From a virus, in the IMG/VR virus record IMGVR_UViG_3300026493_000016, positions 64,001 through 128,000 of that record: 64,000 nucleotides of DNA; one strand, written 5' to 3'. Within the stretch, counting starts at the first letter, position 1. Each line of letters begins with the position of its first letter. The translations under genes and the position numbers were made by a program. Shown here piece by piece: positions 897-31,248 of this stretch. The notes under the pieces were generated by a model that worked only from the letters and a program-made list of their open reading frames with translations, searched no databases and had not been told where the DNA came from.

Positions 897-925
897 ATTC
901 TATCACACACCCTATCAATTTGCAA
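897..925 (-). promoter_or_regulatory. sigma-A-type promoter
   Basis: TTGCAA-17-TAGAAT with TG extension. Confidence 0.7.
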
Positions 926-932
926 GCACTTT

Positions 933-1812
933 TTACATTTTTCCTTCCCTAACTTTTTTAGCCCATGTAGAGATAGTTCCTAGCGGTACACCTGTTAATC
1001 TACTAATTTCTTTGTGTCCGCTGTTTCTAGCTCGCAGTAGCTCGATACACAGGTTTTTATCACCTACTTGTGGTTTTACCCCTCTACTAGACGGTAATGC
1101 TTTATCGCCACCTACCATGCGTCTAAGGTTGCGCAATGCATCTAACTCAATATTCTTTACTGTGTTCTTTGTAACTCGCATTTCACTGGCGATATCAATC
1201 TGCTGTTCGTTATCAAAGTACAGTTTAGAGATAATGTACTTCTCTTTAGAAGGGAGTCTATTAATCAAATCTCGAAGTGCAACTCTATCGTCTACGGGCA
1301 TCTCATTTGAGGTGATAATATCTCCCAGCGTAACTGTATCCGAATTACTATTACTCTTACTCGTCTTAATTTCACGGTCAATATGCATTGGTTCGAATGC
1401 AGGTAACCACGCCATCGCATCTTGTAATTCTTCTATAGAACAATCTAACTCTACCATTAATTCTAGATTTGTCAGATTTGATATCTCCATCTTACGTAAC
1501 TTTAGTACGATAGGCTCTAGTCTGACAGGTATTTTAAATCCTTTTGTGTCTCTCATAAAGTTTTTTTAGTACGCCTTTCATAGACGTTGTTAGATACGTA
1601 ACTAGTTCGAATCCTCTGTTTACATCAAAGGCTTGTACTACTTTAAAGAAGCATTGTGATAGTTCTTGGTACGCGTCATCCTGACTATTCTGGTTTACTT
1701 TATGCTTGTTAATCAGTGACCACATTAGTCCATTGTACTTAATAAACAATACCTCCATTGCATCTTCGTCTCCACCTTGTGCTCGTAAAATTAGTTCTTT
1801 GTTTTTAATCAT
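933..1812 (-). pseudogene. SigF/SigG/SigB-like (sporulation-type) sigma factor split by a 1-nt frameshift; extra C-terminal HTH
   Basis: 5' ORF from ATG 1812 (SD GAGGGGGAG): region 2 ELILRAQGGDEDAMEVL...FDVNRGFELVTY; 3' ORF 933-1556: regions 3-4 LRDLINRLPSKEKYII..LYFDNEQQIDIASEMRVTKNTVKNIELDAL; removing one A from the A7 run (T7 at 1561-1567) fuses them as KGVLKNFMRD, 292 aa. Confidence 0.85.
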
Positions 1813-1843
1813 CTGTAACTCCCCCTCGATAACTGATAAGTTA

Positions 1844-1872
1844 ATAGTATCATAGAGCTCAACAAATTGCAA
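1844..1872 (-). promoter_or_regulatory. sigma-A-type promoter of the SigF-like gene
   Basis: TTGCAA-17-TACTAT, TG extension. Confidence 0.65.
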
Positions 1873-1883
1873 CATATTTTTAC

Positions 1884-1910
1884 AAAAAAAAAAAGAGGCG
1901 TTAGCCCCTT
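1884..1910 (-). terminator. intrinsic terminator
   Basis: AGGGGC-TAAC-GCCTCT followed by long U run. Confidence 0.75.
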
Positions 1911-27968: not shown

Positions 27969-28166
27969 CTATCTTACCCATCTGTTTCCCCACGCTCCTT
28001 CCTCCATCCGTATTGCTAGTTCTGTCTCTAAGTTCTCAGTTAACTTCTTAGATAGAGAGGTAAGACGTGCTAAGTCTTCCCAATCCATCTCTTGTATATT
28101 GTTAGTTAACAAGCGCTGTGTATACTCTGTCAGGTTTCTTAAGTGATTAACGTTTTCTGTATGCAT
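27969..28166 (-). CDS. helical microprotein (UVR-like DWEDLARL)
   Basis: ORF overlapping pol stop. Confidence 0.55.
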   Translation of the reverse strand: MHTENVNHLRNLTEYTQRLLTNNIQEMDWEDLARLTSLSKKLTENLETELAIRMEEGAWGNRWVR

Positions 28167-31100
28167 CTTTATTAGCCTCCATTAGATTAATAAACTCATC
28201 GTACTTCTCTTCTGTTAACTTACCACAGTTCTTACAGTTTTTCAAGTGTTTCTTTTTCATATGGTAGTCACAATATCCTTTAACTGTAGCGAAAGTAGAT
28301 AGGTCTTCTGCATCGTAGTCTACCATATCATTGTAAGTGATACCAATCTCTGCATCAGCTGTTACTGGGAATCTAGTACGTTCTCCTTCCCAATCGATAT
28401 ATAACCAGTCGATAGGTAAATTTTCCATTACGTGAACACCAATCTTAGCCATTTGTTTAATCTCTTCTGGTGGGCAATCGATTACGATACTATCGTGTAC
28501 TGTCATAACGATACGAGAACGTAAGTTTAGCTTCTCGATAATCTTGTTGATTAGGATAACTGAAGAGTTTGTTAAGAATGCGCCAGTACCCTGTACACGT
28601 GTATTGTTCGATTGACGAAGTGCCTCGTTCTGTTTACTTTTATCTTTAGAGAAAATATCTCGAAGGTTACGAGTGAATCCTTGTTTCGTTTCGATATATC
28701 CATGGTCACGTACAAACTGCTTGTTACCTTCGATGTATGCTTCTACCGTTGGTTTCCCTGCGAAGAAGTCTTTAAATAGCTGCTCTGCCTCTTCTAATGT
28801 CATGTCCCACTTCGGCGCGAAGGACATCGGTACCTCACCATATACTACACCGAACGATACGGCTTTTGCTTTTGTACGTTCATCATCTGTGATTTCATCG
28901 ATAAGCTTCTTGAATGTTAATGCTGCTGTCTCTTTATGGATGTCAGCACCTTCAATGAACGACTTAATCATTTCATAGTCACCAGAATCTAATGCTAGAA
29001 TACGAGATTCTAAGGCACTATAATCGAGCTGGATTAATGCTCCGCCATCGAATGATGTAACGAACTCTCGTTTAATCGGGTTGATATAGTCGAATCGAGT
29101 AATATCACCAGACTTCCTTGGTAAATTTTGTAAATTAGGACCAGCTGATGATAACCGAGATGTCGCTGTACCTGTAGGATTGAATCGTCCGTGTAATCGT
29201 CCATCCGCATCTACCATTTCCAAGAACTTATAAGTGAATGATTGTTTACGAGTTTTAACTAAAGAATACTCTAGGTAAATCTCTGCAAGTTCTTTATGTT
29301 CCGGATAGTTGTCCTTAATGTACTCGAACGCTGTCTTATCCGCTTTAAAGTGATACCATTCTGCCTCATGCTCTGTTATGTTGTTGTTTAAAGCAGTATC
29401 TGTAAGATACTCTCGGTTAAATGGTAACTGTACCTCATTGATAAGGTACCATGCGCGTTGTTTGTCATCTGAAGATGCTGGATTAAACTTTCGTTTCTCT
29501 GGGTCCATAAGTTTAGTTCGCAATTTCTCAGTTTCTGGGTCACGCTCTGCTTTTGGTTTAGCAAACTCTTCTACACCCATCTGGTACAGTTCTTCTTTGT
29601 AAGCTTCAACATCCTTCGACGTTTTATATGTGCGTATAAGCTCGATTAAGCGCTGTTCTTCTGCGATGTATATCTCAGCCATATGTTTCACATAAGGGAT
29701 GTCTAATTGGACGCCAGTAGCCTCTAACTTAGCTAGTACATTAGTTAGTTCTACATAATGGTTCGAGTACAGGTCAATCTTCTTCGTTAACCCTTCATCG
29801 TGTGCTCGTTTATCTAACGCGTTGTAGATACGTAAACACACATCAACGTCACCTGCTGCATAAGGACTTAGCATTTCAAAGAAAGGAATCCATTCATAAT
29901 TAAAATCACTACCATCAATTTCATTACGCGGACTCTGTGGTGTTCCGAAATCGGGCATCTTAGGCTTCACATATTTTAAATCCTGCTGTTTTAATAGAAG
30001 CTCACCAATCTGCTCCATAATGGTAGGGTTATCCTCTTTTGTTTTCATGTCTTTCTTGTAAGCTGTATTCTGTTTCTTGAGTACTTTTACTACTTCTTTT
30101 AACTCTTTAATCTGTGCGTTAGCTTCTGCACGGTCAAGTGTACATTGTTCTTTCCATTCATCCTTAAGTTTGTCGATACGCTTCTTATCTTCAGCGAGAG
30201 CATTCTTCTTAAAGTTTTCCTTGAAGTCTTCTAGCTCTCTATCATATCCGCCCATATCTGTAAATTCATATGTTAAGTCTGATAGTCGTAAAGAGTCTTT
30301 TACTTCTTGGTTGACTAGTAGCCAGTACATAACCTGTGTATCTCGGTTATTATTAAACACTGTGATGTTTCTAGTTAAACGAAGGAAGCGAATATCGAAC
30401 TTAATATTATGCCCGACTTTAATCTGTTTAGAACCTACGAACTCTTCTACGAATTTATAAATCTCAGCTAACTCTCCTAGATTCCAAGTGAAACATTTAT
30501 GCTGCAAAGGTATGGTGACACCTTGTCCCTCACGCCACGATAAGCTAATACATAAAGGTTTAGCTCCTACCTTCTCTGCACTTAATGTGTTAGTCTCTAA
30601 ATCCCATGCAACTACAGGAGCATTAACAATCTCTTTAGTGAATATCTCACGTACACGTGCAATCGTGGTAACGTCCTCGTACGTCACTTTCTTAGGCATG
30701 AACGCTGAGTAACCATCCTCTACATATTTCTTTAAGATACCCATATCTGCCACTACTAAGTTAGTAATCTTAGGCTGGAACAACAAATATTCCATAGAAT
30801 AAGTAGGGAGAATCCAACATTCATGTGTCTCGTCTGTTAATTTAGATGTGATAATCTCTCGTCTAGGCACACCTCGAAGTTTAGAAATCTCTGATTTTCC
30901 TATTGTAGCCTTACACGACATATTACCCATCGGAACAATAACATCGGGTTTGTCTTTAATAACCCGAGCTGAGAACTCTTCGTATAACGGGTTTGCTTCT
31001 TTCTGCGTTACGGGTACGTATGATACTGCTTTCTTATTTCTATTACGCGTACGGACCTTAGGGACACGTTTAAACGCGTAATCGATGTACCACTGGTCTT

Positions 31101-31248
31101 GTTTAAGGTTCAATCCTTTCTTACCTACCAGAGCTGCTAGTGTTTTACCTGCTTCAGTATTGTGGTAGTTAAATTCTAGTTCGTTTGTTCCGCGCTTCTG
31201 TTTGAAGTGCTCTTCGCGGATGTGGTCTAGCGCAAACATAATTTTCAT
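28147..31248 (-). CDS. polA: DNA polymerase family A with N-terminal UDG-like and 3'-5' exonuclease domains
   Basis: DLET exoI, GHNIKFD exoII, YAAGD exoIII; motif A DYSALE, B RTKAKAVSFGVVYG, C VHDS; uninterrupted. Confidence 0.97.
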   Translation of the reverse strand: MKIMFALDHIREEHFKQKRGTNELEFNYHNTEAGKTLAALVGKKGLNLKQDQWYIDYAFKRVPKVRTRNRNKKAVSYVPVTQKEANPLYEEFSARVIKDKPDVIVPMGNMSCKATIGKSEISKLRGVPRREIITSKLTDETHECWILPTYSMEYLLFQPKITNLVVADMGILKKYVEDGYSAFMPKKVTYEDVTTIARVREIFTKEIVNAPVVAWDLETNTLSAEKVGAKPLCISLSWREGQGVTIPLQHKCFTWNLGELAEIYKFVEEFVGSKQIKVGHNIKFDIRFLRLTRNITVFNNNRDTQVMYWLLVNQEVKDSLRLSDLTYEFTDMGGYDRELEDFKENFKKNALAEDKKRIDKLKDEWKEQCTLDRAEANAQIKELKEVVKVLKKQNTAYKKDMKTKEDNPTIMEQIGELLLKQQDLKYVKPKMPDFGTPQSPRNEIDGSDFNYEWIPFFEMLSPYAAGDVDVCLRIYNALDKRAHDEGLTKKIDLYSNHYVELTNVLAKLEATGVQLDIPYVKHMAEIYIAEEQRLIELIRTYKTSKDVEAYKEELYQMGVEEFAKPKAERDPETEKLRTKLMDPEKRKFNPASSDDKQRAWYLINEVQLPFNREYLTDTALNNNITEHEAEWYHFKADKTAFEYIKDNYPEHKELAEIYLEYSLVKTRKQSFTYKFLEMVDADGRLHGRFNPTGTATSRLSSAGPNLQNLPRKSGDITRFDYINPIKREFVTSFDGGALIQLDYSALESRILALDSGDYEMIKSFIEGADIHKETAALTFKKLIDEITDDERTKAKAVSFGVVYGEVPMSFAPKWDMTLEEAEQLFKDFFAGKPTVEAYIEGNKQFVRDHGYIETKQGFTRNLRDIFSKDKSKQNEALRQSNNTRVQGTGAFLTNSSVILINKIIEKLNLRSRIVMTVHDSIVIDCPPEEIKQMAKIGVHVMENLPIDWLYIDWEGERTRFPVTADAEIGITYNDMVDYDAEDLSTFATVKGYCDYHMKKKHLKNCKNCGKLTEEKYDEFINLMEANKDAYRKR

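Follow-up and report, generated by a model that had tools for sequence, protein, structure and literature searches.

The family of genes considered here is already known. The Bacillus phages Bcp1 and Wip4 carry homologs of the host sporulation sigma factors SigF and SigG (PMC2716549), and sporulation-like sigma factors of phages are dispensable for lytic growth, with some of them reducing spore yield (PMC9429907). Eldridge g169 turns on sporulation genes and lowers spore yield by 99%; virulence is kept when SP10 g120 is deleted, and SPO1 gp2.21 is dispensable (PMC9429907). Because SP10 g120 and SPO1 gp2.21 can be dispensed with, loss of such a gene should be tolerable for a lytic phage in culture.

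The programmed +1 frameshift of prfB takes place at CUU UGA C, with a Shine-Dalgarno element (SD) 3 nt upstream. Transcriptional slippage sites include the A9 run of dnaX (Thermus) and the T9 run of mxiE (Shigella), and efficient transcriptional slippage usually needs runs of about 9 or more.

The window, by which is meant the whole 64,000-nucleotide stretch that was analysed, comprises bases 64001-128000 of an IMG/VR virus record of 145,872 bp (estimated to be 91% complete) and is from a Wphvirus-like phage of the Bacillus cereus group (Herelleviridae, Bastillevirinae). It holds a SigF/SigG-like gene that is interrupted in an A7 run, for which a functional switch, a recoding site and a sequencing error had each been put forward by the first-pass annotation. 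We consider it very probable that the interruption stems from a +1 insertion, unprogrammed and private to this record, in an accessory sigma gene that is already known and conserved, representing either a recent null mutation or a homopolymer miscall.

The split gene and its expression signals

Two open reading frames on the minus strand, at 1534..1875 and 933..1556, overlap by 23 nt, and neither holds an internal stop. The 5' ORF, when read as 92 aa (1534..1812, minus strand), contributes 83 native residues of sigma region 1.2-2.4, followed by nine out-of-frame residues (KLYERHKRI) and a stop; it is also open as a 113-aa reading from ATG 1875. The 3' ORF of 207 aa (933..1556, minus strand) carries the remainder of region 2.4, region 3, region 4 (about 1122-1265) and a C-terminal extension. 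Pfam matches are to Sigma70_r2 for the former (1.2e-6) and to Sigma70_r4 for the latter (1.8e-9), with weak matches to HTH_23 and HTH_28 at its far C-terminus. The earlier description of two overlapping ORFs, one with sigma region 2 and one with the later regions, is confirmed by the ORF list and the Pfam matches, as is the statement that both are open throughout.

The break falls at 1561-1567, where T7 on the plus strand gives A7 in the mRNA and the letters read GTA CTA AAA AAA CTT TAT GAG, exactly as had been reported. Taking one A out of the run yields a sigma factor of 292 aa (...VLKNFMRD...). The SigF/SigG-like register that had been proposed for this corrected form is borne out by other assemblies, in which the exact 292-aa protein is present; the uninterrupted frame through sigma regions 2-4 that is broken here at 1561-1567 is unbroken in those sibling proteins. 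The PHROG family phrog_351 is matched by the in-frame form with an E value of 8e-92, by the 5' half with 2.4e-27 and by the 3' half with 6.1e-57, and the two halves occupy adjoining positions of the profile (487-580 and 576-791). As the gene is written, translation would stop once 83 native residues had been made, within the helix of region 2.4, and working sigma factor would be absent except for traces produced by random slippage. Annotators should treat the pair of ORFs as a single SigF-like gene with a frameshift (possibly mis-sequenced), and not as two genes or a recoding site.

Expression signals lie upstream on the same strand. The intrinsic terminator of the upstream gene (1882..1910, minus strand) consists of a hairpin at 1910-1893 and a T run; its 7-bp stem contains 4 GC pairs, its tail is T10, and it is invariant in 5 relatives. 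A sigma-A-type promoter follows at 1844..1872 (minus strand), with a -35 hexamer TTGCAA at 1872-1867, a 17-nt spacer, an extended TG at 1852-1851 and a -10 hexamer TACTAT at 1849-1844. The promoter scanner missed it because only 8 of the 12 consensus positions match, the extended TG aside. Relatives show no variation in the -35 hexamer or the TG, and a single variable position in the -10 (TACTAT/TAATAT). The SD, GAGGGGGAG (1819..1827, minus strand), is placed 6 nt ahead of ATG 1812 and is likewise invariant. The stretch from terminator to SD is more highly conserved than the coding sequence, and the promoter, SD and upstream terminator credited to this gene by the first-pass annotation can all be recognized and hardly vary among relatives.

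The upstream ATG at 1875, which would give a protein of 313 aa, was considered as a start and rejected. Since a reading from this ATG would run through the conserved promoter and lacks an SD, ATG 1812, behind GAGGGGGAG, is on sequence grounds the true start. The IMG gene call on the siblings is the 292-aa form. Many GenBank and Logan gene calls start at the upstream ATG and give 312-313 aa (MLQFV...), the extension corresponding to window positions 1813-1875 (minus strand); the credible start is that of the 291-292-aa form (MIK...), after the same SD. Note also that a second promoter-like site is found at 897-925 (minus strand), directly after the sigma gene and before a 60-aa membrane-protein ORF at 684-866. 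It consists of TTGCAA, a 17-nt spacer and TAGAAT, with a TG, and its -35 is the same as that of the sigma gene.

Relatives, in-frame siblings and the quality of the assembly

A megablast search with a 1.2-kb query covering the locus returned 42 Wphvirus phages of the Bacillus cereus group, with identity of at most 84% and coverage of at least 80% in each. The gene is one whole ORF in Abinadi and Hakuna, where it is annotated as a sigF-like RNA polymerase sigma factor, and in Azalea, where it is annotated as a hypothetical protein; in all three the small flanking genes around it are identical in kind. Eight database homologs of 291-313 aa are also single ORFs. When the DNA of nine relatives was aligned, all nine read TCT ATG AAA GG. 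GT. CT. AAG AAC TT. ATG (SMKGVLKNFMR) across the site, so that AAAGAA stands where the window has its A7 run and CTA AAG AAC where it has CTA AAA AAA C. Relative to the nine, the window differs by a synonymous AAG-to-AAA change and one extra A, which the alignment places in the A run. Alignment to related phages had been proposed as a check, and it finds the homologs intact and the run broken by a G in nine of nine.

The lysine codon at the break (window 1559-1569, minus strand) is AAG in 9/9 relatives while neighbouring synonymous sites vary. A/T runs of at least 7 are rare in the genome, with 24 in total and 8 of them inside ORFs; the scarcity of such runs in ORFs, together with the kept AAG, is consistent with selection against coding homopolymers.

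A large protein search returned the window's own 207-aa half (P0001) and two in-frame proteins: one of 313 aa (P0002) on a 32,457-bp Logan contig, and one of 292 aa (P0009) that the cluster listing places on two JGI/IMG contigs. Each is 100% identical to both halves, and across the junction they read ...SMKGVLKNFMRDTKGF.... By exact look-up, neither half (92 aa or 207 aa) is present on any contig but the window's own, which at the protein level makes three contigs with this allele in frame and one with it out of frame. Flanking proteins of the gene and seven long ones (492-1202 aa) have exact copies on 2-10 JGI/IMG and Logan contigs, which argues that essentially one phage has been assembled several times, with the split appearing in this record alone. 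At the DNA level, scans of viral and metagenome contigs for the exact A7 and A6/AAG junctions, scans of genome and metagenome contigs guided by the protein, and a search of plasmids gave no match. Wphvirus-like contigs are also present in assemblies of Bacillus thuringiensis isolates (e.g. OTZ48008.1).

Indels were sought by searching the complete genome (145,872 bp) with tblastn, using 347 ORFs of Hakuna, each 70 aa or longer, as queries; 306 of them had matches. Five frame-split signals were obtained. Two came from the sigma locus itself (the gene and its antisense ORF), and the other three from two unannotated Hakuna ORFs that are antisense or intergenic/non-coding, so that among the 306 of 347 ORFs with matches no second broken real gene was seen. 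A noisy, indel-rich assembly was rejected on these grounds: the sigma gene is the sole real-gene frameshift relative to Hakuna and the assembly is therefore not riddled with indels, which leaves room for one residual homopolymer error. A single ORF of 1033 aa encodes the DNA polymerase (28147-31248, minus strand), and the same holds for BCPG3 and SalinJah. Many Wphvirus records show it instead as pieces of 226-826 aa labelled "DNA polymerase II", probably because the gene is interrupted there by intervening elements such as introns or inteins.

The sequence of events that we favor for the run would begin with the synonymous AAG-to-AAA change, creating a homopolymer to which one extra A was then added in this record. 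We infer the A6 intermediate because the siblings are seen at the protein level. Either slippage has very recently inactivated a dispensable accessory gene in this phage, or the assembly contains a homopolymer miscall. The two are about equally likely, and the original warning, which rated a homopolymer error no less probable than the biological readings, stands.

That the base is real, and the gene a null allele or young pseudogene of a dispensable sigma factor produced by slipped-strand frameshift, has close to an even chance in our estimate. No other gene is broken relative to Hakuna, arguing for a low error rate, and neither the 64 A6/T6 runs nor the other 23 A/T runs of at least 7 break any gene. 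Genes of this class are dispensable in the laboratory (PMC9429907), and the prior synonymous G-to-A change created a mutable run. Such an allele may have been fixed by a bottleneck, or it may be a variant in the sampled population. Against a real insertion, secondary decay is absent, with each half matching the in-frame siblings at 100%; the allele is in frame on each of the three other contigs that have it; and the site is a classic place for base-calling error.

The miscall, under which the phage truly has A6 and an intact 292-aa sigma factor, likewise has a probability close to even. The split forms are confined to one contig and the identical in-frame protein is on three others; the sibling assemblies carry letter-identical proteins of up to 1202 aa; and both halves are perfectly preserved behind an intact promoter, SD and terminator. 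It counts against a miscall that this is the lone frameshift of its kind in 146 kb, in an assembly that is not generally indel-prone, and that two errors would be needed if the truth were the AAAGAA of the relatives. Should the additional A be genuine, the phage would be a naturally occurring knockout of a kind of gene through which phages are believed to disturb sporulation of the host, and a ready comparison partner for the in-frame siblings. If it is an error, there is nothing unusual at the locus.

Switching, recoding and the separate halves

The first-pass annotation had also suggested that the run could serve as an ON/OFF switch or recoding site, through slipped-strand phase variation, transcriptional slippage or a +1 shift at the adjacent CUU-U. 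As considered here, with +1 frameshifting at AAA-AAA or CUU-U, a functional site of this kind would tune the output of an anti-sporulation sigma factor. A7 is slippery, the expression signals are intact, and in-frame and out-of-frame versions of one allele exist in the databases at the protein level; tract-length polymorphism among near-identical genomes is the expected product of a mutational switch. The tract is nevertheless unconserved, being interrupted by a G in 9/9 relatives (AAAGAAC), and both the three annotated relatives and the eight database homologs (291-313 aa) have the gene as one ordinary ORF. A run of 7 nt is also shorter than the length usual for efficient slippage, and no long tract of the kind expected at a phase-variable locus is maintained. 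With AAG in the relatives and near-identical assemblies in frame, we set aside the proposal of a switch or of transcriptional slippage at A7, and rate programmed expression of any of these kinds as very unlikely.

For translational recoding, A7 would permit perfect re-pairing of Lys-tRNA in the +1 frame, and a low-level full-length product is possible. In the +1 frame a TAA is found at the start of, or inside, the A run, and a productive +1 slip is confined to three codons because of this TAA at the run start. A -1 frameshift on A_AAA_AAA was rejected as a candidate, since it continues as ACU UUA UGA and meets UGA after two codons. Folding the 106 nt that begin at the run gives -14.3 kcal/mol, about what shuffled sequences give (z -0.17), so that this segment holds no downstream hairpin or pseudoknot stimulator. 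Near the shift site the only SD-like element is AAAGG, ~12 nt ahead of CUU, and none stands at prfB-like, stimulatory spacing. No slow A-site codon is present either: UAU follows CUU, and UAU is not known as a pause codon. The +1 shift that had been proposed at CUU-U thus lacks both a stimulatory structure and an SD at a useful distance.

The described sites resemble the junction in that prfB, dnaX and mxiE all contain an element of the CUU-U or A/T-run type, and in that the junction joins two overlapping ORFs. They differ from it in what surrounds that element. Set against prfB as generally described, the window has neither an in-frame stop nor a rare codon after CUU and no SD 3 nt upstream; set against the A9 of dnaX and the T9 of mxiE, its run is only 7 and is conserved in no homolog.

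A narrower proposal is that the AAG-to-AAA change made an A6/A7 tract that flips the anti-sporulation sigma factor at an appreciable rate, giving mixed sigma-plus and sigma-minus populations. We regard this as very unlikely. Were it true, flipping could amount to bet-hedging between sporulating and non-sporulating hosts, and the four assemblies, three in frame and one out of frame, would have caught the polymorphism at one moment.

Two products could also be made without any change of frame. The 3' ORF might be translated alone from ATG 1556 as a DNA binder made of region 3/4 plus the HTH, or the halves might reassemble into a two-subunit sigma factor of the type of SigO-RsoA or T4 gp55/gp33. 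The 3' ORF does open with an ATG and carries a complete region 4 and HTH domains, and the extra HTH is naturally a separate ORF in Caeruleovirus. Initiation at ATG 1556 would have to rely on an SD-like AAAGG about 17 nt ahead, beyond a useful distance, and the cut falls in a predicted helix of region 2.4, not in a domain linker. In the AF2 model of P0009 this helix spans residues 70-89; K83 is the last native residue of the 5' ORF, and R87, a residue that 23 homologs share without exception, follows shortly after the break. No split is found at this place in the three annotated relatives or the database homologs, and zero divergence from the intact siblings leaves no time for adaptation. Separate function of the halves is unlikely, and the split pair as a purposeful arrangement is in our judgment extremely so; the suggestion of an independently translated 3' ORF is not supported. 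Even when the switch, recoding and split-protein readings are taken together, they remain improbable beside a private insertion or miscall.

The intact protein and its comparison with known sigma factors

The intact protein is, as judged from profile and structure comparisons, a group 3 sigma factor that is SigF/SigG-like and not an ortholog of SigF. Pfam scores exceed the cut-offs for both Sigma70_r2 (27.9-28.6 bits; cut-off 24) and Sigma70_r4 (36-37 bits; cut-off 24.1). Of the NCBIfam models, only that for the general sigma-70 superfamily, TIGR02937, is passed (60.9 vs 42.9 bits). The score for TIGR02980 (SigB/F/G) is 80.2 bits vs a cut-off of 234, that for TIGR02885 (SigF) 71.3 vs 321 and that for TIGR02850 50.6 vs 457; because these subfamily and equivalog scores are below their cut-offs, the protein was classed as SigF-like and not as a SigF ortholog. 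The best Foldseek matches were SigB, SigD, sigma-S and SigA, the fold of the phage protein being that of group 3 factors, and the closest solved structure was sigma-F of Geobacillus stearothermophilus (PDB 1L0O chain C, 6e-15, residues 4-228). GVLKNFMRD in the in-frame protein aligns with GEIQRFLRD in sigma-F. A search for a second SigF-like copy that might compensate gave a single Sigma70_r4 match in the whole genome.

Both the NCBIfam SigF models and the sigma-F structure end at about residue 232, and the AF2 model of P0009 (pLDDT 80.5) places helices at 252-261, 266-273 and 277-288. Together with the weak HTH_23/HTH_28 matches, these define an extra three-helix HTH at residues 252-288 of the 292-aa form (948..1058, minus strand), in keeping with the original claim of a C-terminal HTH that host SigF lacks. 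The extension is kept in 22 homologs, down to 23% identity, with the pattern GDRE.AI.LL...EIS..TGVP.GT. Wphvirus and many homologs of 298-486 aa have the HTH fused to the sigma factor. The Caeruleovirus phages Bcp1, Bc431v3 and Hobo have it at the N-terminus of an ORF of its own (163-166 aa; BLASTP 6e-5), which begins 2 nt past the stop of a 250-aa sigma gene. This natural pair of fused and split forms suggests that the HTH module acts together with the sigma factor.

The locus as a whole is that of a conserved group 3, SigF/SigG-like gene of a Wphvirus-type phage, with its own promoter, SD and terminator and an HTH typical of the family. Host sigma-F (1L0O_C; TIGR02885/TIGR02980) is alike in residues 4-228 and in its group 3 fold, and differs in that the phage protein has about 55 extra C-terminal residues, which make up the HTH. 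The sporulation-like sigma factor of Eldridge is matched at 27.5% identity over residues 6-288. The factors of Schwartz et al. 2022 (Eldridge g168/g169, SP10 g120, Goe3 g157) are, like the protein encoded here, SigF/SigG homologs in Bacillus phages, and the copy in the window is set apart from them by its frameshift. The SigF-like factors of Wphvirus (Hakuna gp223, AHZ10241.1; Abinadi gp155, UGO46472.1; W.Ph. gp145) are closer still, sharing the locus and its neighbours, the promoter, SD and terminator, regions 2-4 with the C-terminal HTH, and membership of phrog_351, at protein identities of 64-83%. Those factors are single intact ORFs that read CTA AAG AAC, whereas the window reads A7 and is split.
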